From NCBI GenBank assembly GCA_964594075.1, contig CAZQKW010000017.1, positions 1,290 to 65,289 on the forward strand: DNA of 64,000 nt, read 5' to 3'. Shown piece by piece: positions 14,702-35,619 of this stretch. Numbering within the stretch: the first letter of the stretch is position 1; every line of letters starts with the position of its first letter. Both the position numbers and the translations under genes were made by a program. Below the pieces are notes generated by a model, which saw nothing but the letters and a program-made list of their open reading frames with translations, was not told the origin of the DNA and did not search any database. Source of the stretch: an uncultured Thermodesulfobacteriota bacterium. GTDB taxonomy: Bacteria; Desulfobacterota; WTBG01; CAIYCZ01.

Positions 14702-14732
14702 TGTTCGTATTTTGTGAAGCTTTTGTCGCGCG

Positions 14733-15608: not shown

Positions 15609-15778
15609 ATTTTCCTCCTTGAGGATATAAAATTTATGATAAATTAACATGAAACGTGGAAAGTGAAAAGGGGAAAGTGAAAAAACAGTAACGCGCAATT
15701 CGTCGCAGGTCATGCAGACGAAAAAATGCGATGCACGAATCGCAAACCCCTAAATCCCGACTCCCATTCTTTAATTAT

Positions 15779-16519: not shown

Positions 16520-16534
16520 CGGCGTTTGCGGGTT

Positions 16535-16705: not shown

Positions 16706-16742
16706 GGCACCTCCCGTGCTGGTAACCATTTTAAAGATATTG

Positions 16743-17324
16743 TTATTTTTTAGAACTATCGTTCAAAATCAGTTGAGCGGCATCATACAGATCCGACGCT
16801 ATATAGTGCGGCGGTTTAAGATTAGCCTCCCGATGTTTGGTTAGCTCGCGCGCGCCATATCCGGTCAGCACCATAATGGCTGTCGCCCCAACGTTATGCG
16901 CAAGCTCTATGTCGCATGATTTATCCCCCACGACATAGGAGTGCAGCACGTCAATTTCCAATTCACGCGCAGCCTGAAACACCAATCCGGGCAACGGTTT
17001 TCGGCACTGGCATGCAATCCGGTAGTGCTCGACAGCAGCCTCGGGATGATGAGGGCAATAGTAAAATCGGTCTATATGAGCGTTTTCTGTGTTGAGCAGT
17101 GCTGACAGGCGGTTATGAATTTCAGGAATGAGCGCTTCGTGCAGAAATCCCTTGGCGATGCCAGCCTGATTGGTAATGACCACTGTTATGAAGCCGGCAT
17201 CATTTAAGAGCTTAATTGCGTGCGCAGCGCGGGGTATCAACTCAAGCTGGTAGGGGTGATTTAAATAGCCGATATCGGTATTTATTGTTCCGTCCCGGTC
17301 AAGAAACACTGCCTGTTTTTTCAC
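16743..17324 (-). CDS. gmhB: D-glycero-D-manno-heptose 1,7-bisphosphate phosphatase (HAD-IIIA)
   Basis: FLDRDGTIN, ITNQAGI, YCPHHP, CQCRKP.PG, VGDK..D. Confidence 0.88.
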   Translation of the reverse strand: MKKQAVFLDRDGTINTDIGYLNHPYQLELIPRAAHAIKLLNDAGFITVVITNQAGIAKGFLHEALIPEIHNRLSALLNTENAHIDRFYYCPHHPEAAVEHYRIACQCRKPLPGLVFQAARELEIDVLHSYVVGDKSCDIELAHNVGATAIMVLTGYGARELTKHREANLKPPHYIASDLYDAAQLILNDSSKK

Positions 17325-18619: not shown

Positions 18620-18696
18620 ACGGTACCCCTATAATTTTTTAATTCTGATACACAACAATTTGATGCAAAAAAACTTTAAAATTGATTCACAGGCCA

Positions 18697-20367
18697 TTAA
18701 CTATGGCTCTGCCGCAATGCTTCTTCTCGAAGCACTCGACGCAGGACTTTCCCTACTAAACTTTTGGGAAGCTGTTCGGTAAAAATGATGCGCCGGGGTA
18801 TTTTATACTTTGCGAGATTATCGCGGCAATATTTAATAATTTCCTCCGGTGTTGCGGTTGCGCCCTCTTTTAAAACGACATATGCAATTATTTTTTCGCC
18901 CCGCAGTTCATCGGGAATGCCGACCACGGCTGCCTCAGAAACTTTTGCATGGGACATAAGAAACGCATCAAGCTCCAGCGGATAGACATTATATCCCTCG
19001 GATATAATCATGTCCTTTTTCCGCTCCACGATATAAAAGTATCCGTCCGCATCCATCCGTGCGATATCGCCCGTATGCAGCCAGCCGTCTTTGAGAACAA
19101 GGGATGTTTCATCAGGCTTGCGCCAATACCCGTGCATAACCTGGGGTCCCCTGATACATAGTTCGCCCTCGTTGCCCGATGGCAGTTCCTGACCGGTTTC
19201 AAGATCAACAATTTTACAATCCGTGTCCGGCAGCGGCAGGCCGATGCTGCCAATTTTTCGCTGGTGCTGAATGGGATTGCAGTGCGTCACCGGTGAAGCT
19301 TCAGTAAGCCCGTAACCCTCAATTATTGTGCTCTTGGTTATCTGTTCGAAATTGCTTAAAACGCTCAGCGGCAACGGGGCAGAACCAGAAATGCAATAAT
19401 TCACGCTTGAAATATCATATTTTCTTGTTTCCTTGGCGGTATTGAGGGCGGCATAGATGGCAGGGATACCGGGGAAAAAGGTTGCTTTATAGTGTGCAAT
19501 AGCTTTCAAGACATCTTTGGGGATAAAGCGTGGCATTAGAATTAATGTAGCGCCAACAGAAAGAGGCAAATTCATCGCCACGGAAAGGCCGTATGAATGG
19601 AAAAACGGTAGTACCGAGATAAAAATTTCCTGCCCCTCGCGCACAACGTAATACCAGTGGCGCATTTGCATATTATTGCATACAATATTGCGGTGGCTCA
19701 GCATGGCTCCTTTTGAGGTGCCGGTGGTGCCGCCGGTATATTGCAGCACCGCAATATCATGGGGATGTATGTCCGGGACAGGGACAGGTTCATAGTCACT
19801 GCGCACCAGATTGTGAAAAAGCACGACGCCCTCAGATTCTTTCAGGTCAGGCACCTCGCCCGGCGGTTTCCCAAAAAGTGGATACAGGACTTTTTTTAAC
19901 GGCGGCAGATAATCCTGTATTGTGCCGACCACAATTTTTCTCAGCGGGGTGCGGTCTTTAATACTGTTTGCCCTTGCAAAAAGCAGGTCCAGTGTGATAA
20001 GAGTTTGTGCCCCGGAATCGTTAAGTTGATATTCAAGTTCCTTTTCTGTATACAGCGGGTTAGCGGGCACGACAATGCTACCGATACTTAAGGCAGCGTA
20101 AAAAGAAATTACCATCTGCGGGCAGTTGGGTAACCAGAGCATGACCCGTTCTTTTGGCAAAACCCCCAAATGCTGCAGAGCCCCTGCACACCGCATTATT
20201 GACTCTCTAAGCTGCTTATACGTTATAGCGGTCCCCAGGAAGTTAAGCGCCGTATGATCGGAAAACTTTTGGGCAGCATGCTCAAACATCTCGTGAACGA
20301 GCATCTGAGGATATTCAAGCGTTGCGGGGACGGCGCTATCATATGATTTCAGCCAGACTTTGTCCAT
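18697..20367 (-). CDS. fadD: Long-chain fatty acid-CoA ligase
   Basis: YTGGTTGTSKG, GYGLTEASP, GELCIRGPQVMHGYW, TGDIA. Substrate is not determinable from sequence. Confidence 0.85.
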   Translation of the reverse strand: MDKVWLKSYDSAVPATLEYPQMLVHEMFEHAAQKFSDHTALNFLGTAITYKQLRESIMRCAGALQHLGVLPKERVMLWLPNCPQMVISFYAALSIGSIVVPANPLYTEKELEYQLNDSGAQTLITLDLLFARANSIKDRTPLRKIVVGTIQDYLPPLKKVLYPLFGKPPGEVPDLKESEGVVLFHNLVRSDYEPVPVPDIHPHDIAVLQYTGGTTGTSKGAMLSHRNIVCNNMQMRHWYYVVREGQEIFISVLPFFHSYGLSVAMNLPLSVGATLILMPRFIPKDVLKAIAHYKATFFPGIPAIYAALNTAKETRKYDISSVNYCISGSAPLPLSVLSNFEQITKSTIIEGYGLTEASPVTHCNPIQHQRKIGSIGLPLPDTDCKIVDLETGQELPSGNEGELCIRGPQVMHGYWRKPDETSLVLKDGWLHTGDIARMDADGYFYIVERKKDMIISEGYNVYPLELDAFLMSHAKVSEAAVVGIPDELRGEKIIAYVVLKEGATATPEEIIKYCRDNLAKYKIPRRIIFTEQLPKSLVGKVLRRVLREEALRQSHS

Positions 20368-20520
20368 TTAAACTCGCGATTATTGGCGGTCTGCTCGATA
20401 CCGGAGCACCCAAAAGATTGATAGATTGTGCAGAGCCAAATATAGAAATTGTCATGTAGTAATTTTAACTGATGTTTAAAACTCTAATACAGGTTACGAC
20501 ACGTTAGCAAGTATTTTTAC

Positions 20521-22050
20521 ATGACTTTCAAAAACACGGATTACGCGCTCGCTTTATTATCTGGCGTTCTTTTAATTCTAATATTTCCGCAGGGGAACAT
20601 CAAAGAATTCGCCTGGATAAGTTTAGTTCCGCTGTTATTTGCGGTTCAGGGCAAAAAAACTTATAAGGGATTTCTTCTCGGCTCCCTTGCCGGTTTTGTG
20701 TTTAATCTTGGCCTTGTGTACTGGGTAACGGTTTCCATGACGACCTATGGCAAGCTGCCGATGATCTTGTCAGTTCTGGTCTTGATTCTGTTTGCGCTCT
20801 ATTTAAGCCTGTTTGTCAGTCTCCCGGTATGCTGTAGCTGTTATGTTGAAGAAAAGCAGGGTATCGAGATTGCTCATACACTCCCCTTTTTCTGGATAGC
20901 GAGCGAACAGGTGCGTTCATGGTTTCTTACCGGATTTCCATGGGAAAACCTTGGTTATTCTCAATTTGCCGTGCTCCCCGTCATTCAGATAGCAGACATC
21001 ACCGGGGTTTATGGCGTCAGTTTTCTACTGGTCATGGTAAACTGTGCGATTTATTCGCTTCTGGTATCACTGATTTACAAAAGAGCAATCTCTTACCAGA
21101 AGATGGCCGTTGCTTTTATGCTACTCGGTATAAGTCTGGGCTATGGTTGGGTGCGTCTCAGCTCATTAAAACCGGATCAGGGCGCAGCCATAAAGGTTGC
21201 GTTAATTCAGGGAAACATTCCGCAGGATGTCAAGTGGAATCCTGCATTCCTTGATGAAACAATGAAAATATACAGCCGATTAACCATGGAGACGGCGCCA
21301 CAAAAGCCGAATCTCATTATCTGGCCTGAAGCAGCGACTCCGTTTTATTTCCAGTCAGAAAAAGCCTATCAGGGACAGGTTGCAACGCTTCTGAGCAAAA
21401 CGGAGGCTCATTTGCTATTGGGTAGTCCTGCCTGGGAGCGCACCGCAGACGGCATGCAGTATTTTAACAGTGCTTTTTTAGTCTCGCCAGACGGGCAGAT
21501 ACAGGGCCGTTATGATAAAATACATTTGGTTCCATACGGCGAGTATGTTCCGCTTAAACGGTTTTTCCCTTTTATCGAAAAAATGGTGGAAGGGATTGGC
21601 GATTTTTCCTCCGGCAGGGAAACTGCCGTCTTACATTTCCCTGGCGGGGCATTTGGCACACTGATCTGTTATGAAATTATTTTTCCCGACCTGGTGAGAA
21701 GATTCGCTAAGAATGGCGCCACGTTTTTGGTAAACATCACCAATGATGCCTGGTTTGGGCGCACGGCGGCGCCGTATCAGCATTTATCCATGGCAGTGCT
21801 GCGTGCGGTGGAGAACCGGAGACCTGTTGCCCGGGCTGCAAATACGGGTATCAGCGCGCTGATCGATGCTGACGGCAGTATTTTACAGAGCACCAACCTC
21901 TTTACTCCAGCGGCCATAACTGGTATTATTTTTAAAAGAACTGTTAAAACGTTTTATACCGGATACGGCGATGTGTTTGCATTGCTATGCATAGGAATAA
22001 GCTTATTGCTTCTTATGAGACCCGTCTTAATATTACTAAAAAACAGTTAA
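20521..22050 (+). CDS. lnt: Apolipoprotein N-acyltransferase
   Basis: GFPW, IWPEAA, YDKIHLVPYGEYVP, ICYEIIF, NITNDAWFG, RAANTGIS. Confidence 0.95.
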   Translation: MTFKNTDYALALLSGVLLILIFPQGNIKEFAWISLVPLLFAVQGKKTYKGFLLGSLAGFVFNLGLVYWVTVSMTTYGKLPMILSVLVLILFALYLSLFVSLPVCCSCYVEEKQGIEIAHTLPFFWIASEQVRSWFLTGFPWENLGYSQFAVLPVIQIADITGVYGVSFLLVMVNCAIYSLLVSLIYKRAISYQKMAVAFMLLGISLGYGWVRLSSLKPDQGAAIKVALIQGNIPQDVKWNPAFLDETMKIYSRLTMETAPQKPNLIIWPEAATPFYFQSEKAYQGQVATLLSKTEAHLLLGSPAWERTADGMQYFNSAFLVSPDGQIQGRYDKIHLVPYGEYVPLKRFFPFIEKMVEGIGDFSSGRETAVLHFPGGAFGTLICYEIIFPDLVRRFAKNGATFLVNITNDAWFGRTAAPYQHLSMAVLRAVENRRPVARAANTGISALIDADGSILQSTNLFTPAAITGIIFKRTVKTFYTGYGDVFALLCIGISLLLLMRPVLILLKNS

Positions 22051-22260
22051 GAAGGAATGGTCAAAGAGTCCATAACAGGCCAGAGTTTCTCTATGAGACG
22101 AGACCCCGGAGGTTACCGTGGGGATTTTTCTGTGTTTTTCAACAGAATATCATGTAAGGGCAACAACTGCCGAACCGAAGATTTTATTTTATGGCAGGGC
22201 AGGGTATCAGTATGTTGCTGCGCTTAATTATACTATCATAATCACATAACAGGAGATAAT

Positions 22261-23353
22261 ATGTCGGCAAGTCAATGGGAAGAAAAAGTGAACTCGTTAG
22301 AACAGCGCATGGAGACACTGCGAGGTTATCTTTGAGGTTGACCAAAAAAAGGCGCGTATAGCGGAATTAGAAAAGGAGATTGCCCGCCCTGATTTCTGGA
22401 CTGACCAAAAAAATGCCAAGAAGGTTGCCAAGGAACGAAAAACAATAGAAAATGTGTTAGCGCTCTGGAATAAACTTGAGCGGGAAATGGAAGACTGCCA
22501 TGTCCTGCTTGAACTGGCGCGGGATGGTGCGGATCAAGAGGTAGAGCGCGAGCTCGAACAGAGCACCCAGCGAATAGAACAGGAGGTTGCAGAACTTGAA
22601 TTTAAAAGAATGCTCAGCGGCGAGAACGATTTTAATAACGCGATCGTCAGCATTCACGCCGGTGCAGGGGGAACCGAAGCTCAGGATTGGGCTAACATGC
22701 TTCTACGGATGTATCTGCGCTGGGCAGAAAAACGAGGTTTCAAAGCAGATATTTTTGATATTCTTCAGGGAGAAGAGGCAGGCATTAAAAGCGCCACGTT
22801 CACGGTTAACGGTGATTATGCCTTCGGATATCTTAAAGCCGAGGTAGGCATTCACCGTTTAGTGCGAATCTCGCCATTTGACGCTAATGCGCGACGGCAT
22901 ACCTCGTTTGCATCGGTGTATGTTTATCCTGACATTGAGGACGATGTGGTTATTGAGATTGACGACAAGGACCTGCGCATTGACACGTTTCGCTCCAGTG
23001 GCGCCGGCGGCCAGCATGTCAACAAGACCGAATCAGCAGTGCGCATAACACACCTCCCGAGCGGCATTGTCGTGCAATGTCAAAATGAGCGTTCCCAGCA
23101 TATGAACCGGGCTATGGCGATGAAGCTTTTAAAAGCGCGCCTCTATGAAAAGGAGATGGAAGAACGGGAAAAGGAACTGGATAAGATTCATGCTTCGAAA
23201 AAGAAAATTGCCTGGGGAAGTCAGATTCGGTCCTATATTCTGCAGCCGTATCAGATGGTCAAGGACCATCGTACCGGGAAAGAAGTTGGAAATGTTGAGG
23301 CAGTTCTAAACGGGGATATTGACGAGTTTATCGAAGCGTATCTGTTAAGCTAA
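22261..23353 (+). CDS. prfB: Peptide chain release factor 2 with programmed +1 frameshift at CTT TGA (22330-22335)
   Basis: ORF1 MSASQWEEK...LRGYL ends in CTT TGA. The +1 frame continues EVDQKKARIAELE..PDFW and contains SPF and GGQ. Internal SD-like GAGGT lies just before the shift site. Confidence 0.95.
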
Positions 23354-23484
23354 AAAAACATTTTGTCTATAAAAGCACACACAGATAATACCGGATTGTT
23401 TGTGTCCTGTTTATTTCCCTGTCAATCAAAAACAGGTGCCGCTGTTATCGGGTATTACTACACTATAGTGCATTGAGGAAGCAC

Positions 23485-24069
23485 ATGCAAAATATTGCAA
23501 ATTTTCTATTTGAAGTGGGTATGCTCAAAAAGACGCCGCGCACTGGACTGCAGTTTCTGGGGTCTGGAGAAGAGTCGGTGGCCGAGCATGTGTTTCGTGT
23601 GGCAATTATCGGCTATGCACTTGCACGCCTGCATTCGGATGTGGATGAACTAAAGATACTCAAGATGTGTTTTTTGCACGACCTTCCGGAGGCACGAACC
23701 GGCGACTTGAATTATGTAAATAAAAAGTATGTGATTGCAGATGAGAAAAAAGCCGTGCAGGACCTTGCAGAAACAATTCCGTTTGGCACCAATATTCAGG
23801 AAATGATCGAGGAATTCAATCAGGCAGAGACTATAGAAGCCCGGCTCGCCAATGATGCCGATCAACTTGAGCTGATCCTCATGTTGAAAGAACATAAGGA
23901 CTTGGGAAACAGGTATGCTGAGGAATGGATTTCGTTCGCGCTTAAACGCCTCAGGACTGAAACGGCGCAGGATCTTGCCCGGGCAATTCTTGAAACGGAT
24001 TCAACCTCCTGGTGGTTTAAAGATAAAGGCGACTGGTGGATTAATGGCGGTAATCCGCGCCTCAAATAA
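23485..24069 (+). CDS. HD domain hydrolase (YfbR/HDDC2-like 5'-nucleotidase family)
   Basis: LK..PRTG, ESVAEH, LHDLPEARTGD, DADQLE. Confidence 0.88.
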   Translation: MQNIANFLFEVGMLKKTPRTGLQFLGSGEESVAEHVFRVAIIGYALARLHSDVDELKILKMCFLHDLPEARTGDLNYVNKKYVIADEKKAVQDLAETIPFGTNIQEMIEEFNQAETIEARLANDADQLELILMLKEHKDLGNRYAEEWISFALKRLRTETAQDLARAILETDSTSWWFKDKGDWWINGGNPRLK

Positions 24070-24092
24070 ACCACTACGCACCAGTGCGCCGC

Positions 24093-24806
24093 CTATTCTT
24101 TTAATTTTTCCATCTGTTCCAATATCTCGGGCGGCAGCTTGTCCCGCATATCCGGCGGAACCATGTCATTAAACAGCTGCAGGATGGTAGCCGGATCCGG
24201 TTCTTCTCCCTGTTCAAACTTCTGTTCAAGAATTTGATCCATCATATTAAGAAAATTCTGCTGAAATTTATCAGCATCCTCTTTGCTGATTTGCGGCGGT
24301 ACAATCTGCTGCGGTGCTTCCGCAACAGGATTTTTAACTTCCTCTGCCAGCGCTGGTTTTGGTGTCGGGGCTGAGCCGCTGGTGAGCTCTCTTTGGCCGC
24401 CTTTTTTCCCGATTAAATCAAGCTGCACCAACCGCGGCTGCGGCTCTCCTTCTGCAAAATGCATAAGGAAATTCTTGATATTAGCCAGCCGCAAAATGCG
24501 CTGAACACCGAGACGCACGGGAATCTGTTGAAATTGAACACTGACCGGCGTGTCGGTGAAAACATCGCCATATACAATAATTTTAATAGCGCATTTTTCG
24601 CCCAGCTCTTTCATTAAGTCCTCAGACCGCATATCCCGCGCCTGCACGCTGATAAACCCATTGGCATATTTAACCGCACCTTCTATAACTTCGTCGGCAG
24701 GATGAGGTTCTGCACTATCTTTTGCCATAATGAAGGCAGGATAAAAACCCCAAAAAACCAACAGGGGTAAAAGGACACGGATGAGCGTTATACGATTATG
24801 CTGCAT
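24093..24806 (-). CDS. Exported protein with STN/secretin-N-like domain
   Basis: Signal peptide, then SVQARD..EDLMKELGEK..IKI..PVSVQFQQIPV..GVQRIL, and a Pro/Gln/Glu-rich tail. Confidence 0.55.
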   Translation of the reverse strand: MQHNRITLIRVLLPLLVFWGFYPAFIMAKDSAEPHPADEVIEGAVKYANGFISVQARDMRSEDLMKELGEKCAIKIIVYGDVFTDTPVSVQFQQIPVRLGVQRILRLANIKNFLMHFAEGEPQPRLVQLDLIGKKGGQRELTSGSAPTPKPALAEEVKNPVAEAPQQIVPPQISKEDADKFQQNFLNMMDQILEQKFEQGEEPDPATILQLFNDMVPPDMRDKLPPEILEQMEKLKE

Positions 24807-25019
24807 AGATATAATAAACCTTTCATTGTGACTTAAAATTGATTAGCACCGATATTTGGACAAAAATAATTGTATGTCAATAAGAATTATATTATCAGGA
24901 CGATCCATAAAATCCCCTCCGCATTATTTCCAATTTACTTCGCTTCTCATCAAAACTGGGTGCTGATTGCATGCAATTCGCCAGATTTATAAAGATAATT
25001 ATGACGTAAAATTCGTGGA

Positions 25020-25970
25020 TTATATTTCTATCAGGATCTTTATATTTTGTTTCTGGCTTGCAGCCTCGACAGCTCTGATCGCCTGGTCAAGCGGAAAAAT
25101 TGCCGAAATGAGCGGGACCACGGCAATCTTCTTTTTCTGTAATGCCTCTATTGCCGGGGCAAAAGGGCCGCATCGGGAACCCCGCAACTGTATCTCATTG
25201 ATGACCACCGCATTAAAATCAATGGCGCGCTGTTCGGCAATTGTTGATTTTATAACAAGCGTGCCTTGCGGTTTAGTGAAACGCAACGCTGCAGAAAGGC
25301 CCGCAGGCGATCCAGTGCAGTCAACCACCAGATCAAAGGATTCATTTAATTCATCACTGCTTAATTTTGTATTTATTCCCAGCTTATTAAGTATAGATAA
25401 TTTTTCCTTATGCCTGCCCATTACGGTTACCGCAGCCTGAGTGTTGTGGAATACCTGAGAGCATAGGAGCCCCATTCTTCCATCTCCAAGCACCAGCACC
25501 CGAGAATTTACAGAAACCGGCACTTGGTCGAGAATCCGATAACATGCAGCAAGCGGCTCGACAAAAATTGCCTCTTCGTTCGTAATCGAATCAGGCAAAA
25601 GGTGAAGATTTCGTTCAGGAAGTAAAAGATACTCTGCAAAGGCACCATTTCTACCGCTGATCCCCAGAACGGAGCGGTTTGGGCAGTGATTATACATCTT
25701 CGCGGCGCAATTTGCACAGCTCAAACACGCACAATTAATTTCGCCAACAACTCGTTTTCCTATTAAAAACCCGCTGTCGGCCTCTTCAACCATGCCCACA
25801 AATTCATGCCCTATGATGCCCTTAAATGCCATGTATCCTTTTGTAATCTCAATATCTGTCTGGCATACGCCGGCCATAAGGACTTTTATGAGTGCCTCGC
25901 CCGGTGGTCTGACAGGCAACGGGAGATCATTTTGAAGCTGTAGTGTGCCGTTATAGTACAGACCTTTCAT
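25020..25970 (-). CDS. Zinc-dependent MDR alcohol dehydrogenase
   Basis: GVCQTD, GHEFVG, C-x-C-xx-C-xx-C-x7-C, GAFAEY, EPLA, GDGRMG. Confidence 0.92.
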   Translation of the reverse strand: MKGLYYNGTLQLQNDLPLPVRPPGEALIKVLMAGVCQTDIEITKGYMAFKGIIGHEFVGMVEEADSGFLIGKRVVGEINCACLSCANCAAKMYNHCPNRSVLGISGRNGAFAEYLLLPERNLHLLPDSITNEEAIFVEPLAACYRILDQVPVSVNSRVLVLGDGRMGLLCSQVFHNTQAAVTVMGRHKEKLSILNKLGINTKLSSDELNESFDLVVDCTGSPAGLSAALRFTKPQGTLVIKSTIAEQRAIDFNAVVINEIQLRGSRCGPFAPAIEALQKKKIAVVPLISAIFPLDQAIRAVEAASQKQNIKILIEI

Positions 25971-26192
25971 AACGATTATTTATATCATGTTATAAATGTC
26001 CGGGCAAAGACGCGTTAAAAAATGTTTTGCGACAAAAGTGAAAAACATCAGGAATATTATAAAGATTGGGCAATAATCAGTTAAGAGATTATCAGTATAT
26101 TCCGAACATAGCAATGAATAACTGATTCTTATTTAATACCCACGTGGCCGCACATAAACCCGATTGATGAAAAACAAAGAAGGTAAAAACAT

Positions 26193-28343
26193 ATGATAAA
26201 ATTGCATTCAACACTACCGATTAATAATGCAGAAAAAATGTTGCCGGAAATTCAGAAAGACACGATGGCTTTCCGGGTTCCCTATAAGGATACACGTTTG
26301 ATGAAGTCCTTTATCAACAAATATTATGCAGTATTTTTTATTTTTTTTGTGCTATTTACCATCTTTCTTTTACATAATTTCATACCTAACAAACTATACT
26401 TCCTTGACTTCTACTTCATCCCCGTCATTTTCAGCGCATATTATCTGCGGCGCAGCAGGGCACTGTCAGCGTCATTGATGACGGTGCTGGCGGTTTTTAT
26501 GTACTGTTTGGCGTTCTGGGAAACCAATCCTTTTAAGATGCCATTAGCGGACTCATACGTTCATGTTTTCACTTGGGGATGTTTTTTAATTCTGGCCGGC
26601 GCCATGGCGAGCGGGCTGTATGAAAAACTGATGATAGAAGTTGAACGTGGCAGGCAACACAATCAGGATCTGCTGCGCACTCAGCATGAACTTGAGCAAG
26701 CCCATGCAACATTGAAAAATTACGCTGAAAAACTTGAAATGCAAGTTAAAAACCACGATGTTGAACTTAACGAGGCACATGCCGCGCTCCGGGAATATAA
26801 CGAGAAGCTGGAGCTGATGGTGAGACAAAGAACCGAAGAGCTGGAAAAGTCAAAAGAAACCCTTGAGACATTAAAGTCAAAGGTTGAGACAGCGCTCTAT
26901 TCCACGATGGATTCCTCAGTAATAAAATTATTGCTGGAAGGCCGGCTGCGCAATGAGAAACGCACTGTCAGCATTCTTTTTTCGGACCTGGTAAATTTCA
27001 GCGCCTATTCTGAAGATACCCCTCCGGAAGTTGTCATCAGGGATGTCAACAATTATTTGGCGGAGATGGAACCCATTTTACTAGCCTACAATGGACACAT
27101 AGACCGGTATATGGGAGACGGCATCATGTGCGAATTTGGCGCGCCCGTTGATTACTCAATGTATCGATTAATGAGCGTCCTGGCGGCGATAAAAATGCAG
27201 GAAAAAATGACTGCAATAAACAGTCCCTGGCAGATGCGTATTGGAATTGCTTCGGGAACTACCATTATAGGGCTGGTGGGCAACAAACGACAATCCTATA
27301 CGGCGATGGGGGATGTGGTAAACATAAGCGCGCGCTTGCAGAAAGTCTGCAGACCGGGGAAAGTGTTAATTGATCGTTTCACCTATGAAACCGTTGGCCG
27401 GTTTATTGATGCGAACAAAAAACGCGAAGTGCCCACCAAAGATGACATCAACATGGAGTTGGAATTAACGCTTAAAGATTTACATGCACGCGCAGAAGCT
27501 GAACCGGACAATCCCGAACATTATTATGATATTGGAAAAATTCATATGGAGATGAACGAACTGCATGAGGCTCTTCGCTATTTTGAACGCGCCGTGAACC
27601 TTGATTACCGCTATGATAAAGCTAAAGTAGCCTATGCAGAAGCGAGTCTCAAAATGCGAAAAAATGAGACCATTAATCTTCGCGGCAGAAGGCAGAGGAT
27701 CGAGGCCTATGAAGTTGTTGCAATTAAGGATCCTTTTGACGACCGCGCCAGAGTTTCAGAAGACTTTGCACGTCGCTATCGGCATGTAGTGGATATGATT
27801 CCGATTCCAGAGGATGTCGTGTTGCCGGTTGAGGCGCTTGATGGAAGCATCGGTCATGGCAAACTGGTGGCCGTCTTCTCCTATGCGATTGCCAGCTGTT
27901 TAGGTCTTTCGGAACGCGAAAAAACCGACATACTCACTGCCGGATATGCAGCAGACATTGGCAAAGAGATTATACCGCATCATCTTCTGACCCGTACTGG
28001 AACCCTCACCACGCGAGAAATTGAGACATTGCGCGCACATGCAGCAGAAGGTCCCAGCGCGCTGCGGAAATTGGGTTATGATAATGACAATATCCTGAAA
28101 ATAGTGCGGCACAGTCATGAAAATTATAATGGCTCAGGCTATCCTGACGGGCTTAAAGGCGAAGAGATTCCCCTGGGTTCCCGCATTATCGCGGTCGCGG
28201 ATACCTATGCGGCCATGATATCGTGGCGTCCCTATCGCGATTCATGGGATTGTTCAGTCGCATTGGATGAAATCGCCAGGGGTGCAGAGGCCGGTATTTA
28301 TGACCGCAACGTTGTTGAAGCGCTCATCAAAGTACTGAGCTGA
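26193..28343 (+). CDS. Membrane class III nucleotide cyclase with TPR insert and degenerate HD-GYP domain
   Basis: About 3-4 TM helices and a coiled coil, then LFSDLVNFS / DRYMGDG / YTAMGDVVNISARLQ, TPR-like helices, and ADIGK / SHENYNGSGYP / RPYR. Confidence 0.85.
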   Translation: MIKLHSTLPINNAEKMLPEIQKDTMAFRVPYKDTRLMKSFINKYYAVFFIFFVLFTIFLLHNFIPNKLYFLDFYFIPVIFSAYYLRRSRALSASLMTVLAVFMYCLAFWETNPFKMPLADSYVHVFTWGCFLILAGAMASGLYEKLMIEVERGRQHNQDLLRTQHELEQAHATLKNYAEKLEMQVKNHDVELNEAHAALREYNEKLELMVRQRTEELEKSKETLETLKSKVETALYSTMDSSVIKLLLEGRLRNEKRTVSILFSDLVNFSAYSEDTPPEVVIRDVNNYLAEMEPILLAYNGHIDRYMGDGIMCEFGAPVDYSMYRLMSVLAAIKMQEKMTAINSPWQMRIGIASGTTIIGLVGNKRQSYTAMGDVVNISARLQKVCRPGKVLIDRFTYETVGRFIDANKKREVPTKDDINMELELTLKDLHARAEAEPDNPEHYYDIGKIHMEMNELHEALRYFERAVNLDYRYDKAKVAYAEASLKMRKNETINLRGRRQRIEAYEVVAIKDPFDDRARVSEDFARRYRHVVDMIPIPEDVVLPVEALDGSIGHGKLVAVFSYAIASCLGLSEREKTDILTAGYAADIGKEIIPHHLLTRTGTLTTREIETLRAHAAEGPSALRKLGYDNDNILKIVRHSHENYNGSGYPDGLKGEEIPLGSRIIAVADTYAAMISWRPYRDSWDCSVALDEIARGAEAGIYDRNVVEALIKVLS

Positions 28344-28605
28344 TACCCTGCCCATAATTTCCGCTTCGTAACATCCCTGAAATATATTTTATAAAGATTA
28401 AAAATCACAAGGCGTGGTTGTTGGCTCCCTCCGCTGTTTCACCATCGCAATTGAAATATTGTGAAAAAGTCCTCTTGATTTGACGTTGCGTTTTACTGTC
28501 GCCGCATGGTAATAATAGCCACTATTACAGTTTCAAAAACGAAGGTGCGTGCCACAAAGTTACAACGCATCCAACGTGTTGCGGATAAGGCGGGCAACGG
28601 ATTAC

Positions 28606-29481
28606 ATGCGTTTTGGATTTCACATTTCTATTGCCGGAGGATTTTCCAAAATTGCCGCACGAGCCGTCGATATGGAGTGTCAGTGCATTCAGTTCTTTTC
28701 TCAAAATCCGCGCGGCTGGGCACCTTCTCCGCTCAGGCGGAAAGAGGTTAATGCTTTTATTACGTCAATCTCGCTCACCACTATTCATCCCATTTTTATT
28801 CATATGCCCTATCTGCCTAATCTTGCCTCACCTGATGCCACTCTTTGGAATCGTTCCGTGCACTCATTGTGCATGGATCTGAGACGGGCCGAGCAGTTGC
28901 AGGTTTCTTATGTCATAGCCCACATCGGCCATCGTGGCGATCAAAGTGAAGAATGGGCCTGCGACAGGGTGAGTCTGGCTATAGACAGAGCCTTATCTGC
29001 TGTGCCCAATAGCGTACGGTTGCTTTTGGAAAATACCGCGGGGCAGGGCACTGAAATTGGATATTGCATGCATCATTTGCAACGCATTATTGCCGGCAGT
29101 AATCATAAGGATCGTTTGGGCATATGCCTTGATGTGGCGCATGCTTTTGCTGCCGGATATGATATGTCAACCAGCAGGGGGCTTGATATGATACTGCGGG
29201 AAATTGAACAGTATATTGGCCTTCACCGTCTGCATGTGCTGCATCTCAATGATACGACTTCAGGTCTGGGTTCGCGGGTTGACCGTCACTGGCACATTGG
29301 GAAAGGCAGCATTGGGATGGACGGATTCCGGCGAATCGTAAACCATCCGGCTCTTTGCCTGCTTCCCGGCATCATGGAGACACCCAAAAAGTCTGATGAA
29401 GACGACCGCATGAATATGAAGGTAATTAAGAGCTTGGTGAGGGGAAAAGGCAGATCTCTGAAGCAAAAAAGCGGTGAGTGA
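28606..29481 (+). CDS. nfo: Endonuclease IV
   Basis: GFHISIAGG, QFFSQNPRGW, HMPYLPNL, LLENTAGQG, CLDVAHAFAAG, HLND, DRH.HIG.G, METP. Confidence 0.95.
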   Translation: MRFGFHISIAGGFSKIAARAVDMECQCIQFFSQNPRGWAPSPLRRKEVNAFITSISLTTIHPIFIHMPYLPNLASPDATLWNRSVHSLCMDLRRAEQLQVSYVIAHIGHRGDQSEEWACDRVSLAIDRALSAVPNSVRLLLENTAGQGTEIGYCMHHLQRIIAGSNHKDRLGICLDVAHAFAAGYDMSTSRGLDMILREIEQYIGLHRLHVLHLNDTTSGLGSRVDRHWHIGKGSIGMDGFRRIVNHPALCLLPGIMETPKKSDEDDRMNMKVIKSLVRGKGRSLKQKSGE

Positions 29482-29589
29482 TTTTAGCTTCTCTTTACTG
29501 AAGAAAAATATTATAAGTGACAAGTGATGGTGAATCGTGCATGGTGAGATACCGGAGATTATTTATAACTGGATAGTAAGCTTTAACAT

Positions 29590-31884
29590 ATGAAAATACT
29601 CAAGAGAGCTTTGATTATCATCGCATGCGGGGCAGTTGTTTTTGCCTTAGCAGTTTTGCTGTATGCTCAATTTACCCTGACGGAGAATAAGATACGTCAA
29701 ACCCTTGCGGCAGAAGTATCGCACTATCTGCGTCGGGATATGACCTGCAAGAACATTCAGGTGGGGTGGCTGGGAGGTATTGTACTGAAAGATGTAATTC
29801 TCCACAAATCTTTTCCCTGGGAAGAAGATGATATCCTTACGTGTCCAGAGATTTATCTGAAAGCGCGGCTTATTCCTCTATTGCTGGGAAAGCTGTTCAT
29901 AAAGGAAGTGCTGATTCAGGAGCCGCGCATTGCCCTGTTTCAAAAGGAACTGGGGCAGTATATAAGCCTATACGGAAACAGTGCGCAGCGCCGAGCATCG
30001 GCTGCCACAGGTCAGCAGCCGCCATTGCGGATGATTTTTCTGCCATCCAATCTTGCAGTTCACAACGGCTCGGTCGTGCTAAAAAGCACCATACGCGAAT
30101 TGCCGCAACCCATCAGCGTGTCGCTGGCTGATGTGAAGGTGCTGGTTACCAATGTTTCGCCGCTATTTTCCTTTCCGTTTACTATTTCGGCACGGGTTGT
30201 CGGACCTCAGCCGTCGCTGTTTACGTGCGACGGAGAAGTTTCGGTGCCGCGCCAGAAAATGACAGCACGTCTTTCTCTGGATAAAACCGATCTCTCCCAA
30301 TTCAGCAAATATTTTACCTTTTACCAAGTGCCCGTGAAAAGTGGCAGCGTCAAACTTGACGCGCAAATTAATTTTGCGGAACTTAAAGATTTCATGGTAA
30401 CCGGCTTGATTGATGTGCAAGATGTTGAAATGGGCATTGCTTCCTTTATTCATAGTGGCGTTGCTCACGAGGTTGTGTTGCAAGGAGCAAATGCAACGCT
30501 TAATTTTGCTGTGTTATGGAACATACCCGACCAGGTCATTACCTTTCAGAAACTTGAAGGTTCGGTATTGTCCGCTTCATTTTCAGGCGAAGGATCGGTA
30601 AAAAAATTAGGCACCGCACCATATATAAAATTGATATTAAAAGCGGACGATTTTCCTTTGGAAAATTTTTTCAGTCGCCTCTCTTCCAAGCTGCCCTGGA
30701 TGCTCGACGAGGCAAGCCTTTCGGGCAAAGCTGATTTGCGGCTGAATCTGGAGGGCGAGCTGCCTCAAGCTGTATTCACAAAGTTTAACGTTAATTTCAA
30801 AGGCAACCGGCTTAATTACAAACCGTTGGGCGGATTTCAGCCGGACATTGAAGGCACAGGTATGATTGATAACAGCAGAATTGCGCTGCGCGATTTAAAA
30901 ATCGGGATCAAGAGTTCAACCATAACGCTTGCGGGAGATATATTAAATTACTTGCAGGGGAATCCGCAGCCGGAAATCAAAATCGTAGCATCGCATATTA
31001 ATATCGCGGATTTCATGGTGCCGGGAACACGCGCCGAAGATGCGGAAAAAGAAGAAGTCGGGCCGTTTGACTTGAGGGGGCTAACGCTGGGCGGGCACAT
31101 AGACATGGGAGGCGTATCTTTTTTGGGGATGTCCATCAATAATCTGCGCGGCAATTATGTGCTCGCTGACAACCAGTTGTCCGTTAAAGAGCTTACCGGC
31201 ACTATTGGGCAGGGGCAGTTCAAACTTGAGGGTTTAGTCAACCTTGGGGTTAAAGGGCTTGATTATTCCCTGAGTCTCAACCTTGACCGCGCATCATGTA
31301 AGGAAATAGCGAAGATGATAAATCCGCTTTATGAAAACTTTGTTGACGGCATGATATCGGGCACGTGCACCCTGAAAGGAAACGGCGTCACACCGCTTCG
31401 GTTTGTTAAAAATCTTGAAGGAAGAGGCTTTTTTACTGTGCAGGATACACTGTTCAAAGGGGTGTCGTTGGGCACCATCGGATCTCTTTTGCGCATGGAT
31501 GGCAGCGAAGGCCTGCGCTTTGACCAGGGTCAGGTGCAGCTTAAACTTAATGATAGCACGGTAGATGTCAGCGGCGGATTTATAAATCCCGACCTGGCCG
31601 TATATCCGAACGGCACCATCAATTTTGACAGCTCGCTGCGCCTTGATACCATATTAAAACTTTCTCCGGCCTTTTCGCGCAGAATGATGAGCGAAAAAGT
31701 TCTTCAGTATTTTCCCCAGGAAGACGGATGGATTGCACTGCCCATAGAAATTAGGGGAACGCTTTATGAGCCCCAAATTTCCCTGTCAAAAGAGGTGCTG
31801 AATATTTTTATTGAAAAAGTCATGCCGGCTGTCTTGAATGAGATGCTTAAGGAACATCAGGGGCAGGGCGGGGCTTCTGAATAA
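29590..31884 (+). CDS. AsmA family protein
   Basis: Single N-terminal TM, beta-rich repeats, C-terminal LPIEIRGTLYEPQ. Confidence 0.8.
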   Translation: MKILKRALIIIACGAVVFALAVLLYAQFTLTENKIRQTLAAEVSHYLRRDMTCKNIQVGWLGGIVLKDVILHKSFPWEEDDILTCPEIYLKARLIPLLLGKLFIKEVLIQEPRIALFQKELGQYISLYGNSAQRRASAATGQQPPLRMIFLPSNLAVHNGSVVLKSTIRELPQPISVSLADVKVLVTNVSPLFSFPFTISARVVGPQPSLFTCDGEVSVPRQKMTARLSLDKTDLSQFSKYFTFYQVPVKSGSVKLDAQINFAELKDFMVTGLIDVQDVEMGIASFIHSGVAHEVVLQGANATLNFAVLWNIPDQVITFQKLEGSVLSASFSGEGSVKKLGTAPYIKLILKADDFPLENFFSRLSSKLPWMLDEASLSGKADLRLNLEGELPQAVFTKFNVNFKGNRLNYKPLGGFQPDIEGTGMIDNSRIALRDLKIGIKSSTITLAGDILNYLQGNPQPEIKIVASHINIADFMVPGTRAEDAEKEEVGPFDLRGLTLGGHIDMGGVSFLGMSINNLRGNYVLADNQLSVKELTGTIGQGQFKLEGLVNLGVKGLDYSLSLNLDRASCKEIAKMINPLYENFVDGMISGTCTLKGNGVTPLRFVKNLEGRGFFTVQDTLFKGVSLGTIGSLLRMDGSEGLRFDQGQVQLKLNDSTVDVSGGFINPDLAVYPNGTINFDSSLRLDTILKLSPAFSRRMMSEKVLQYFPQEDGWIALPIEIRGTLYEPQISLSKEVLNIFIEKVMPAVLNEMLKEHQGQGGASE

Positions 31885-31918
31885 TGGCGGTTGAACATAA
31901 CGAGCGGGACAGGCTCTA

Positions 31919-32956
31919 TTATAAAATTAACCACGGCCGCGGCAGAAATATCTTTTCGTACGTGCTGAAGGCATATCGGTCAGTCATCCCGGCAATAAAA
32001 TCGCATACCTGGGTTTGCAACTCCACAGCGCATAGGGTCTTGCCTGCCTCTTGGAAAAGATCATCCGGGTGTTCCAGAAAATAATAATACAGTTCCTCGA
32101 TTATTTTTGAGGCCTTATTAAAATCTTCAAGCAATGAGGGAAGATAATAGACCCGATCATTGAGAAATTCCCGCAAACTTCGCGCCGCAGCAATTATCGT
32201 AGTGCTGGCTGCTATTTTTTCAAGGTTGCACTCCCGCGTAGTTTTGATTATGTCCCGCACCATGGTATCAATTCGCTGGGAACTCGTCTTGCCCAGAATT
32301 TCTATTACATGACCTGCGCCCTGGGTTACTTCGTCATGAGTTAGAAGACCGGCGCGCAACGCATCATCGAGGTCGTGGTTAATATAGGCGACCGTGTCAG
32401 CAATACGCACGATTTGTCCCTCAAGCGTTACGGGCAACTGGTCGGGGTCGTCAGGCAGAATTTCACCCTCCCGTTTTGAATGTTTTACAACGCCGTCGCG
32501 CACTTCAACGGTAAGATTGAGCCGCTCAATTTCATCAATCACCCTGAGGCTTTGTTCCGGGTGGCGAAACCCGCCCGGCACTATTTTGTTCAGCACTGCT
32601 TCGCCCGCATGGCCAAAGGGGGTGTGGCCCAGATCATGCGCCAGGCTGATCGCTTCGGTTAGATCTTCATTCAGGCGGAGCGATTTGGCAATGGTTCTGG
32701 CAATCTGGGAAACTTCAAGGGTGTGCGTGAGCCGTGTGCGGTAATGGTCGCCGGTGGGCGTAAGAAAGACCTGCGTTTTGTGTTTGAGCCGGCGAAACGC
32801 TTTTGAATGAATAATGCGGTCGCGATCATGTTGGTAGGCGGGTCGCAGATCACACTCTTCTTCCGCAGCAAGCCTGCCCTTGCTGTTACAGCTTAATGTC
32901 GCCTGCGGCGCAAGATGTTTTCTCTCAATTTCTTCCAACTGTTCCCTGATATTCAT
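31919..32956 (-). CDS. dgt: Deoxyguanosinetriphosphate triphosphohydrolase
   Basis: QHDRDRIIHSKAFRRLKHKTQVF, RTRLTHTLEVSQ, HDLGHTPFGHAGE, DFIAGMTDRYA. ATG at 32956. Confidence 0.95.
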   Translation of the reverse strand: MNIREQLEEIERKHLAPQATLSCNSKGRLAAEEECDLRPAYQHDRDRIIHSKAFRRLKHKTQVFLTPTGDHYRTRLTHTLEVSQIARTIAKSLRLNEDLTEAISLAHDLGHTPFGHAGEAVLNKIVPGGFRHPEQSLRVIDEIERLNLTVEVRDGVVKHSKREGEILPDDPDQLPVTLEGQIVRIADTVAYINHDLDDALRAGLLTHDEVTQGAGHVIEILGKTSSQRIDTMVRDIIKTTRECNLEKIAASTTIIAAARSLREFLNDRVYYLPSLLEDFNKASKIIEELYYYFLEHPDDLFQEAGKTLCAVELQTQVCDFIAGMTDRYAFSTYEKIFLPRPWLIL

Positions 32957-33192
32957 GGCAATATCAAAAATGATGTTCAACTCGGTTACAAACCTTTTAC
33001 GTTCGTAGCAAAATATATGATAAAAATCAATCCCCAACCGTACAGGACTTTCATTGCGTTTTTGTCGAAATTCCGCGAGACCGCATAAAGAACTGAAAAC
33101 CGGCGCTGTGCACACTGCAGAATCAGAACCCCGTGCGCTGTTTCATCAGCACCAATGTAATATTTTGGGGAATGTCCTGAGACAGCAATGAA

Positions 33193-33221
33193 TTGACAGT
33201 TGACAATTTATCTGATAAAAA
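33193..33221 (+). promoter_or_regulatory. Sigma70 promoter for the small basic peptide gene
   Basis: TTGACA (33193-33198), 17 bp, TAAAAT (33216-33221). Confidence 0.7.
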
Positions 33222-33275
33222 TTAAGCAACGTGCATGAAACATAATAGAAGAAAACCAAAGAAAGGAGGGTGAAG

Positions 33276-33362
33276 ATGGCAGCAACAAAAGCAAAGGCGA
33301 AGAAACCGTCTGCAAAAAAACCGGCAAAAGCAGCTAAAAAGGGATGTGGCTGTAAGAAGTAA
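33276..33362 (+). CDS. 28-aa Lys/Ala-rich peptide with C-terminal CGC (MAATKAKAKKPSAKKPAKAAKKGCGCKK)
   Basis: Manual translation. AAAGGAGG RBS at 33262-33269, with its own promoter and terminator. Below the ORF-track cutoff. Confidence 0.75.
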   Translation: MAATKAKAKKPSAKKPAKAAKKGCGCKK

Positions 33363-33371
33363 CATTCCGCG

Positions 33372-33410
33372 CCCCCCACGCGATAAATTAGACGTGGGGG
33401 GTTTCTTATT
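33372..33410 (+). terminator. Intrinsic terminator
   Basis: CCCCCCACG (33372-33380) / CGTGGGGGG (33393-33401), then TTTCTTATT. Confidence 0.8.
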
Positions 33411-33502
33411 AGGCTATCATTAATTGTCTGGAGAAAGCTCTATTTTGAACAATATTGTGCTATAATATATTACAAAGTAAATATTCTTTGGTATCACTGT
33501 AT

Positions 33503-34528
33503 ATGAAAATATTTTGTACCTGTTTATTGTTATTATGTCTTGCCGGTTGCATGGTTAATCCGGTAACATTGAAGAGTGAATTCAATGTTGTCAGCGAAGA
33601 ACGAGAATTAAATATCGGCAGGCAGGCGCACCCGCAAATTATCAAACAGTTTGGCTATTACCAGAATGAGAAGCTGCAACGTTACGTCAATGAAGTCGGA
33701 CAGAGACTTGTGGCGGTTTCGCGGCGTCGGGATTTAACGTATCATTTTACCGTGCTCGATACCCCCATAGAAAATGCGTTCGCAGTTCCCGGCGGCTATA
33801 TTTACATTACCCGTGGCCTTCTGGCGTTTCTGAACAGCGAGGCAGAGCTGGCCGGGGTTCTGGGCCATGAGATTGGTCATATTGTCGGGCGAGACAGCGC
33901 CAATCAAATGTCGCAAGCTATGCTTGCACAGATTGCAGCATTAGCGGGAGCAGCAGCAACGCCATCAAGCGGGGACGCTGCTGCGGCAACCGGCATGTTG
34001 CTCAATTCAATTATGCTGGGCTATGGGCGGGAAAAGGAGTATCTTGCTGATGTTCAAGGGATAGAATATATGTATAAAGCAGGATATGACCCCAGACAGA
34101 TGGCCACATTCCAAAAAAACCTTGCTCAAATAACCGAAGGCCCGGTAGGTTATCAGGTTTACAACAGTACCCATCCTAATATGCTTGACCGCATGGAGCG
34201 CGCAACCGCCAAAGCTAAGGTGATGATGGCTATGAATGACGCTATGGCGCAGATAAATATCGAAACCGCCAGCCACACAACGGCCGCGCACAATAATATC
34301 CAAGTATTGTCAGATAAATATAAAGAGTATTTGGATGGGCTTGCGTATGGGCCGAAAGAGAACCTGCGGCATATCAAGATCTATACAGTTCAGGAGGGCG
34401 ATACACTGCCGCTGATAGCAAAAAAGACCATGGGCAGCGAACATTATGCGAAAGAGCTTGCTGAACTTAACGGCCTACCGCTTTCTATGCAGCTTGTCCC
34501 GGGCACGAAAATAAAAACCATACTTTAA
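33503..34528 (+). CDS. M48 family metallopeptidase lipoprotein with C-terminal LysM-like domain
   Basis: Lipobox LAGC, NAFAVPGGYIY, HEIGH, E..AD, STHP, YTVQEGDTL..IA. Confidence 0.88.
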   Translation: MKIFCTCLLLLCLAGCMVNPVTLKSEFNVVSEERELNIGRQAHPQIIKQFGYYQNEKLQRYVNEVGQRLVAVSRRRDLTYHFTVLDTPIENAFAVPGGYIYITRGLLAFLNSEAELAGVLGHEIGHIVGRDSANQMSQAMLAQIAALAGAAATPSSGDAAAATGMLLNSIMLGYGREKEYLADVQGIEYMYKAGYDPRQMATFQKNLAQITEGPVGYQVYNSTHPNMLDRMERATAKAKVMMAMNDAMAQINIETASHTTAAHNNIQVLSDKYKEYLDGLAYGPKENLRHIKIYTVQEGDTLPLIAKKTMGSEHYAKELAELNGLPLSMQLVPGTKIKTIL

Positions 34529-34533
34529 GCAGA

Positions 34534-35565
34534 TTAGGATGCTGCACACCAACTTCGCCCAGCAGCCTTAACGAAGAGTTCCAGCCGTCTCATCATTTCG
34601 AAAAATTTATCTGGTTTTAAGGATTGGATTCCATCGCTCTGCGCATGATCCGGATGCGGATGAACCTCTATCATGAGACCGTCAGCTCCCGCGGCAATCG
34701 CCGCAAATGACATGGGTGCAACCAGTTTCCAGTGGCCGGTCCCATGGCTCGGGTCGACGATTACCGGCAAATGGGTGCGTTCTTTCAAAAGGGGCACTGC
34801 GCTCAGGTCAAGGGTATTGCGGGTTGCCGTTTCAAACGTGCGTATGCCGCGCTCGCATAAAATAACCTGCATATTCCCCTCTGACAAAATGTATTCCGCC
34901 GACATCAAGAACTCTTCTATCGTTGTCATCATGCCGCGTTTTAAGAGCACCGGTTTCGTGCATTTGCCGAGCGCTTTAAGCAGCGCAAAGTTCTGAACAT
35001 TGCGTGCGCCGACCTGAAGTATGTCTGCATGCCGTGAGATCAGATCAATGTCTCCCGGATTCATAATTTCGGTGACTACCGGCAGGCCGGTTACCTGGCG
35101 CGCCTTGTCTAATAAGACTAAACCTTCTTCCTCCAACCCCTGAAAGCTATAGGGTGATGTGCGCGGCTTAAACGCACCTCCCCGCAAGACTGTTGCCCCC
35201 GCTTCCTTCACCGCAGCGGCAGTTTCAATTATTTGCTGTTCGCTTTCAATTGAGCATGGGCCGGCAATGACCACTATTTCATCACCACCAATGAGCACTT
35301 TATCATTAATTCTGATGATAGACTTATCCTGTTTTACTTCGCGACTGGCAAGTTTATATGGCTGCAGGATGGGAACAACTTTTTCAACACCCGGCAAGGT
35401 TTCCAGAGCCAGCAATTTATCTTTGCCGCGCTCGCTGCCTACCGCGCCTATAACGGTTCTTTCTGTGCCGTAAATTATGTGCGGCTGATAGCCCAATTCT
35501 TTGATAGTATCAAGAACTTCTTGAAGTTCTTCGGGGGATGTTTTAGCCTTCATAACGATTATCAT
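34534..35565 (-). CDS. aroF: DAHP synthase type I-beta with N-terminal regulatory domain
   Basis: [53 protein letters not shown]. Confidence 0.93.
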
Positions 35566-35583
35566 TGGAATTTCCTCCTAACG

Positions 35584-35619
35584 AAAAGAGCCAAGTAAGC
35601 GGTTGCTTCCATGGCTCTT
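35584..35619 (-). terminator. Attenuator terminator in the aroF leader
   Basis: AAGAGCCA ... TGGCTCTT TT hairpin with inner AAGC/GCTT, just upstream of the AGGAGG RBS. Confidence 0.8.

Follow-up and report, generated by a model that had tools for sequence, protein, structure and literature searches.

A membrane-anchored class III cyclase with a helical insert in its catalytic fold and a degenerate HD-GYP domain: a possible link of cAMP with c-di-GMP

We analyzed a stretch of 64,000 nucleotides (the window) from contig CAZQKW010000017.1 of an uncultured Thermodesulfobacteriota bacterium (GenBank assembly GCA_964594075.1). An open reading frame (ORF) at window positions 26193..28343 encodes a protein, here called the query, in which a membrane module precedes a class III nucleotide cyclase and an HD-GYP domain that has lost part of its metal ligands. 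HD-GYP domains are known as phosphodiesterases (PDEs) of cyclic di-GMP (c-di-GMP), and the cyclase is of a type that would produce cyclic AMP (cAMP). The cyclase fold is interrupted by a helical insert resembling tetratricopeptide repeats (TPR). The features of the gene are listed below with the amino acid (aa) positions of the query; TM stands for transmembrane.

26193..28343, + strand: whole ORF, 716 aa plus stop codon; homologues with E = 0 and 48-84% identity over the full length
26193..26321, + strand: N-terminal cytoplasmic tail, aa 1-43, with 8 Lys/Arg; kept in close relatives only
26322..26621, + strand: four predicted TM helices, aa 44-63, 68-85, 89-108, and 122-143, with very short outer loops
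26622..26909, + strand: extended coiled-coil linker, aa 144-239, running on from TM4 in the model
26910..27431, + strand: pre-cyclase helix and class III cyclase core up to the strand 405-413, aa 240-413
27432..27671, + strand: TPR-like insert of four helices within the cyclase fold, aa 414-493
27672..27725, + strand: resumed cyclase fold, aa 494-511, with the INL-R497-G phosphate loop and the final strand IEAYEVVAI
27726..27848, + strand: linker, aa 512-552, two helices
27849..28340, + strand: degenerate HD-GYP domain, aa 553-716

We regard this domain anatomy as close to certain. The cyclase was recognized by the Pfam profile Guanylate_cyc (PF00211), which matched aa 255-419 with 72.2 bits (cut-off 21.9), and by a Foldseek structural match with E = 5e-11. 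The Pfam match ended at profile position 168 of 183, which means that the last strands of the fold are absent from the contiguous match. Catalytic residues were assigned by alignment to Cya2, CyaB, and CyaC and with the catalytic positions in Table 1 of PMC6005667. All eight class III catalytic positions were occupied in the query:

metal: D265 (FSD) and D309 (GDG)
base: R305 (DRYMGD; Lys in CyaB and CyaC) and T370 (YTAMG)
phosphate: R349, R381, and R497
ribose: N377

A preliminary description of this DNA had reported that both metal-binding aspartates and the Asn-Arg pair (N377 and R381) were intact and that the purine-specificity Lys was replaced by Arg with the Thr retained. The alignments to Cya2, CyaB, and CyaC bore out each of these assignments. 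R497 aligned with Cya2 K608 and AC-II K1065, the position-8 triphosphate contact. Conservation was followed in 118 close homologues and in 77 full-length genomic copies. D265, D309, T370, N377, and R381 were invariant in all genomic copies, and D265 and D309 also in all close homologues. Position 305 was occupied by K69/R45/H4 in the close homologues and by K64/R12/H1 in the genomes, making Arg the minority residue, and on a rough neighbor-joining tree (midpoint-rooted, without support values) Arg305 was restricted to the innermost clade around the query. At position 497, which is Arg in the query, the family has K79/R38. A Lys/Thr pair at the base positions is the signature of class IIIb adenylate cyclases; in the query the Thr (T370) is kept and Arg stands in place of the Lys at 305. 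We take the query to be a class III cyclase, probably IIIb-like, with ATP as the probable substrate.

The position of the insert was examined by removing aa 411-491 in silico. The Pfam cyclase score increased from 74.9 to 80.6 bits and the end of the match shifted from position 169 to 179 of 183, while a control with a shuffled tail scored 74.8 bits. After the same removal, the match to the solved structure of Cya2 (2w01) rose from 82 to 95 bits and reached the end of the chain, and that to CyaB (3r5g), in which INLRGRRQRIEAYEVV pairs with IAVKGFSRPVQIYQVV, improved from 76 to 88 bits. The AlphaFold2 model gave the order strand 405-413, helices 421-436, 441-453, 457-470, and 475-492, and then strand 503-511; a hinge at aa 494-498 was the only low-confidence spot in the area of the insert junctions. 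A Foldseek search with the full-length model aligned chains 5oyh_D, P, and O of RhGC over 264-266 columns with target TM-scores (TMt) of 0.80-0.82, the best of that search. The lengths of these alignments fit a gap of ca. 85 residues, which we take as suggestive support for an insert inside the predicted fold. As the Pfam excision, the excision against solved structures, and the AlphaFold2 model agree, the location of the insert within the cyclase fold is confirmed. It ends four residues ahead of R497. The preliminary description had placed a TPR of about 100 aa inside the cyclase and had proposed domain profiles and structure prediction as a check. These place it inside the fold as claimed, with a length of 81 aa instead of about 100. 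The insert had also been placed after the VLIDRFTYE helix; a further strand, FIDANKKREV, intervenes between the two.

In the query, the matches of the insert to TPR families in Pfam (aa 430-492) remained below the gathering scores, with 21.6 against 27 for TPR_2, 20.9 against 25.7 for TPR_8, and 24.5 against 42 for TPR_CcmH_CycH. Residues 433-484 did match TPR models and designed TPR proteins, the latter matching the insert at E = 2.8e-9, and many homologues carry TPR matches in Pfam. Despite the sub-threshold scores the insert is clearly TPR-like, as judged from such sequence matches. TPR domains in the strict sense consist of three or more tandem repeats that make a ligand groove, and the insert has only about two helical hairpins (four helices). 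Its length was 80-84 aa in all 77 genomic copies. By sequence it was the least conserved segment of the protein, with 0.24-0.49 identity.

The query shares its catalytic fold and the catalytic residues two Asp, Thr at base position 5, Asn, and Arg with the class IIIb cyclases CyaB from P. aeruginosa (3R5G) and CyaC from Spirulina (1WC0) and with Cya2 (a guanylate cyclase, 2W01), with matches of 76-95 bits. In CyaB, as in the query, a membrane module and a helical linker precede the catalytic domain. In all three the fold aligns as a contiguous segment, whereas in the query 81 aa interrupt it immediately ahead of the position-8 phosphate loop. Further differences of the query are Arg instead of Lys at positions 305 and 497 and the C-terminal HD-GYP domain. 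Proteins in which a class III cyclase is likewise combined with TPR helices (P0156, P0167, and P0168) were considered as relatives of the insert and rejected. Their N-termini are of PAS, ECF-sigma, or REC type, and a unit of cyclase plus TPR then comes two or three times in tandem. Unlike in the query, their cyclases are contiguous (Pfam 7-178 of 183), the TPRs come after the domain, and an HD-GYP domain is lacking.

H555, taken as the first His of the HD-GYP domain, lies 44-45 aa behind the last cyclase strand in every homologue. Pfam HD_5 matched aa 553-707 with 106 bits (cut-off 27.2). The residues of this domain were mapped on an alignment with the HD-GYP phosphodiesterase PmGH (4mcw), which begins after H555; this residue was assigned as the first His (GH motif) from conservation in the family and from the alignment with DvhD, described below.

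A587-D588: PmGH H221-D222; His lost (HD to AD)
H616: PmGH H250; kept
S641-H642 (E643): PmGH H276-H277; first His lost (HHE to SHE)
D670: PmGH D305; kept
R679-P-Y-R682: PmGH R314..K317; kept
R601-T-G603: PmGH K235-P-G237; KPG changed to RTG
A673: second Asp of D..DA; lost
GYP, aa 649-651: kept

The comparison with PmGH agrees with what had been read from the sequence earlier, namely HD as AD, HHE as SHE, loss of the second Asp, and retention of GYP and RPYR. The preliminary description had also asked whether homologues share the degeneracy. They do: the HD histidine was absent in all 118 close homologues and in all 77 genomes (A66, S5, G3, C2, L1). Ser641 was invariant in the 118 close homologues. 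Further metal ligands were lost in sub-branches, H555 in 16, D588 in 8, and D670 in 13 of the 77 genomic copies, while GYP and R679, Y681, and R682 persisted across these copies. The mean pairwise identity was 0.65 for the HD-GYP domain and 0.72 for the cyclase core. The domain is thus nearly as conserved as the cyclase, which indicates that it is still under selection.

Active HD-GYP phosphodiesterases (PmGH, 4MCW; PA4781, 4R8Z; V-cGAP3, 5Z7C) have in common with the query the fold, the GYP and RxY[K/R] motifs, and five of the seven metal ligands. They differ at the HD His and the first His of HHE, which are Ala and Ser in the query, and at KPG, which is RTG. These replacements make hydrolysis unlikely. 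According to a census of HD-GYP domains, RxY[K/R] is the main determinant of specificity for c-di-GMP, and RxxQ or RxxN shifts it toward cyclic GMP-AMP (cGAMP). The RPYR of the query is a motif of the c-di-GMP type.

The best match of the query HD-GYP domain in the PDB was DvhD, with E = 1e-22 by sequence and E = 4e-11 and TMt 0.77 by Foldseek. DvhD from Desulfovibrio vulgaris (PDB 9RBZ/9RC0) has lost metal ligands and binds c-di-GMP without hydrolyzing it, with cGAMP as a weaker alternative ligand.PMC13090378 Upon binding of c-di-GMP it dimerizes and the preceding stalk helices move.PMC13090378 The idea in the preliminary description that a degenerate HD-GYP domain can serve as a c-di-GMP receptor thus has experimental proof in this protein.PMC13090378 The ligand-site residues of DvhD corresponded to the following positions:

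DvhD Y621: query Y650
DvhD L577: query L605
DvhD M646: query M675
DvhD R650: query R679
DvhD Y652: query Y681
DvhD R653: query R682
DvhD E668: query E699; variable in the family
DvhD K582: query I610; not kept
DvhD Y523: outside the alignment

Like the query, DvhD is membrane-anchored and carries a degenerate HD-GYP domain. It differs in its dCache-PAS-HD-GYP architecture, which controls a periplasmic protease by inside-out signaling and does not include a cyclase. DvhD has also lost more metal ligands (HD to SQ, HH to MN) than the query (AD, SH), and it has KPG where the query has RTG.

The full-length architecture of the query was present in more than 120 protein clusters with 48-84% identity. 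A scan of one genome per species gave a relative in at least 131 species, spread over no fewer than eight phyla. The best 80 loci kept include Nitrospirota, Methylomirabilota, Acidobacteriota, Beta- and Gammaproteobacteria, Elusimicrobiota, Desulfobacterota, and Verrucomicrobiota; a cultured carrier among them is Pseudoalteromonas denitrificans DSM 6059 (locus L072). Some genomes have two or three cyclase-HD-GYP paralogues at separate loci, such as L059 and L060 on the chromosome OY760074.1 of an Acidobacteriota metagenome-assembled genome (MAG), and L018, L019, and L045 in one Nitrospirae MAG.

Residues 240-515 were searched exhaustively against 1.84 billion representative proteins. About 38 representatives matched cyclase, insert, and final strand together, and weaker matches covered the cyclase core only. 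All 38 insert-bearing representatives have an HD-GYP domain next or are fragments ending within one, so in this search the insert was found only together with HD-GYP. The unit of cyclase, insert, and HD-GYP (the cassette) also occurs behind other N-terminal sensors, including PAS in P0151 and a zinc ribbon in P0136. By their motif strings, family members fall into four states:

both sites canonical: P0131, P0136, P0145, P0146, P0170
cyclase intact, HD-GYP degenerate: the clade of the query
cyclase degenerate, HD-GYP intact: P0172
both degenerate: P0171, P0151

On the same rough tree the intact forms were basal, followed by a clade in which HD is AD and HHE is kept (Elusimicrobia, Pseudoalteromonas), and the clade with both AD and SHE, which includes the query, was nested within it. 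This tree makes the degeneracy a derived state, reached by stepwise loss, and no accident of one sequence. The state of the query appears to be derived from a bifunctional ancestor.

The N-terminal half of the protein agrees with the membrane cyclase that had been proposed earlier, with four predicted TM helices in front of a cyclase whose catalytic residues are intact. The TM region (aa 44-143) matched no Pfam family; within it W128 was invariant. The very short outer loops and the positively charged N-terminal tail indicate that the remainder of the protein should be cytoplasmic. Residues 1-30 had a pLDDT below 50 in the AlphaFold2 model. Only the closest relatives share roughly the first 36 residues (26193..26300); in most homologues the alignment begins near aa 37. 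The frame could also start at the internal Met codons of aa 25 and 37, yet the annotated ATG has a Shine-Dalgarno-like motif, GAAGG, 9 nt upstream. In the AlphaFold2 model TM4 runs on as one helix of ca. 120 residues into the cyclase domain. The coiled coil contains a 26-aa internal repeat, aa 161-186 LRTQHELEQAHATLKNYAEKLEMQVK and aa 187-212 NHDVELNEAHAALREYNEKLELMVRQ (window 26673..26828). TM4 and the cyclase are 112, 129, 137, or 165 residues apart in different family members (137 in the query); these discrete classes look as if coil units had been gained or lost.

The gene order at approximately 14000..35600 of the window is the same as that of positions 1..18148 of locus L001 (metagenome assembly GCA_900174595.1), where the orthologue is 84% identical. 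The genes on the 5′ side of the cyclase are, in order, ADSL, an AMP-binding enzyme, Lnt, release factor 2 (RF-2), a YfbR-like HD protein, a hypothetical protein, and a zinc alcohol dehydrogenase; those on the 3′ side are an Nfo-like endonuclease, AsmA, a dGTPase-like HD protein, an M48-LysM peptidase, and DAHP synthase. The genes shared around the cyclase are all of housekeeping type, with no signaling partner among them. Clustering of ORFs at ca. 80 loci gave no conserved gene neighbors beyond lineage-level synteny (13 loci for the best). A motif scan for GGDEF, PilZ, and cyclic nucleotide-binding proteins found none in the window, which at 64 kb is too small for this to weigh much. The promoter and terminator scan gave counts not above those in shuffled sequences (6 vs. 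5.2; 2 vs. 2.9), and an Rfam scan found no RNA element near the cyclase gene. Elsewhere in the window, at 42563..42686 on the - strand, a full-length match to the molybdenum/tungsten cofactor (Moco) riboswitch (RF01055) scored 69.3 bits, with a gathering score of 36. The RF-2-like gene is a 299-aa ORF with a GTG start at 22454..23353 on the + strand (PCRF and RF-1 domains in the syntenic L001). With so short an ORF, the upstream part probably lies in a different frame, as would be expected for the programmed +1 frameshift of prfB.

From the domain architecture and the pattern of conserved and lost residues we infer that the query has cyclase activity, has lost hydrolysis of c-di-GMP, binds c-di-GMP, and couples this binding to the cyclase. 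The mechanism that we favor, with confidence evenly balanced between its being right and wrong, is a cyclase regulated by c-di-GMP in which the insert acts as an internal lever. The protein would be a homodimeric, membrane-anchored, class IIIb-like adenylate cyclase that makes cAMP. Its HD-GYP domain, with two metal-binding histidines lost, would bind c-di-GMP without hydrolysis and act as a built-in sensor. Binding of the nucleotide may alter the geometry or dimerization of the HD-GYP pair, as in DvhD, and the change would travel via two elements of fixed length, the 44-aa linker and the 81-aa helical insert. A second, membrane-derived input could be supplied by the four-TM module and the coiled coil. 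Active sites of class III cyclases form at the dimer interface, and a ligand-driven change in the HD-GYP pair is for this reason a plausible regulatory input. Since the insert is spliced in four residues before the triphosphate contact R497, movement at this point would change cAMP synthesis. A model of only the cassette had a pTM of 0.82 and a pLDDT of 86 with agreement of all five AlphaFold2 models, which suggests that its three modules pack as one unit. The cassette is also rigid in length (insert 80-84 aa, linker 44-45 aa), whereas the N-terminal coil varies. The regulation may be an activation or an inhibition.

Several observations count against this mechanism. At the base-specifying position 305, Arg stands in place of Lys. 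When Foldseek was run with the cassette model, every cyclase alignment ended at the insert without bridging it, and the predicted contact between insert and HD-GYP domain derives from the pTM of the model and the co-occurrence of the two. Because the window contains no GGDEF gene, production of c-di-GMP by the organism is an assumption. In the ligand site, RTG stands for KPG, Ile occupies the place of DvhD K582, and E699 varies among family members. Some metal binding and hydrolysis may persist, as the query retains five core metal ligands out of seven and DvhD has kept far fewer, and the HD-GYP census cites an RpfG that lacks a key His and is nevertheless reported to be active.

The last two points bear on the main rival explanation, that the protein is still bifunctional and, like the basal members, both makes cAMP and removes a cyclic dinucleotide, with an AD/SHE HD-GYP domain whose phosphodiesterase activity toward c-di-GMP, cGAMP, or pGpG is weak or altered. 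H555, D588, H616, H642, and D670 together with E643 are invariant or nearly so in the clade of the query, the fixed Ser641 (118 of 118) shows no sign of drift, and basal members have a complete HD-GYP domain on the same cassette. We nevertheless consider this explanation unlikely. One His is lost at each metal site, and the second Asp of D..DA (673) is Ala in the query. In related sub-branches that have lost more of the ligands, the domain and its nucleotide contacts are still present, as in a receptor and unlike an enzyme.

A second explanation, also of low probability, is that the HD-GYP domain binds no nucleotide and serves as a dimerization or interaction scaffold that keeps the two cyclase domains in register, or recruits a partner via GYP, for example a GGDEF protein, with the insert as a brace. 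Class III cyclases need dimerization and HD-GYP domains dimerize,PMC13090378 and the fixed lengths of linker and insert would suit such a role. RpfG-family proteins without catalytic activity work through protein-protein interactions. A pure scaffold would have no need for the RxYR motif and the base-clamping residues, which are kept across phyla, and no conserved neighbor points to a partner. The preliminary description had proposed that the cyclase is gated jointly by a dinucleotide and by an external protein bound to the TPR-like insert, which is very improbable. TPRs often bind peptides and aa 433-484 do match TPR models and designed TPR proteins, but a classical TPR groove takes more than four helices in about two hairpins, sequence conservation is lowest in the insert (0.24-0.49) at fixed length, no neighbor is conserved (best 13 of ca. 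80 loci), and the insert always accompanies HD-GYP in a compact cassette (pTM 0.82). The fixed length, the strict co-occurrence with HD-GYP, and the packed cassette fit better with an internal structural role, as in the lever of the c-di-GMP-regulated cyclase.

For the family as a whole we tentatively propose a broader reading that is possible, if less probable than regulation of the query by c-di-GMP. The cassette may be a two-messenger module that ancestrally made cAMP and destroyed c-di-GMP, and in which, depending on the lineage, one active site or the other was later turned into an allosteric nucleotide sensor, with the insert as the lever from the HD-GYP domain to the triphosphate loop of the cyclase. 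In the clade of the query this would give an adenylate cyclase under allosteric control by c-di-GMP. A similar evolutionary logic is known from tandem GGDEF-EAL proteins such as PdeA (CC3396), LapD, and FimX, in which one domain has degenerated into a nucleotide sensor and members keep both sites, one, or neither; the cyclase-HD-GYP family has all four states. GGDEF-EAL proteins couple two c-di-GMP domains, whereas this family couples a domain that makes cAMP to a c-di-GMP domain. Bd1971 of Bdellovibrio combines a cyclic nucleotide-binding domain with EAL and thereby lets cAMP and c-di-GMP signaling converge in a single polypeptide, as in the query.PMC6717892 It works in the opposite direction, with cAMP sensed and c-di-GMP degraded, and its domains are unrelated to those of the query.PMC6717892

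The two domains of the query come from known families, and receptors of the degenerate HD-GYP type are already established. In the literature searched we found no description of a cyclase-HD-GYP fusion or of an insert within the cyclase fold, and no adenylate cyclase under allosteric control by c-di-GMP. Homologues are labeled in databases as 'c-di-GMP phosphodiesterase class II' or 'adenylate cyclase'; the former label is probably wrong for the AD/SHE clade. Natural variants with both sites active, one, or neither provide a comparative series, and one carrier, P. denitrificans DSM 6059, is in culture. If the proposed mechanism is true, cAMP would be linked to c-di-GMP directly, at the post-translational level, by a cyclase that carries a c-di-GMP-binding domain of its own, and regulation through an element inserted beside the γ-phosphate loop would be a new mode of control of class III cyclases.

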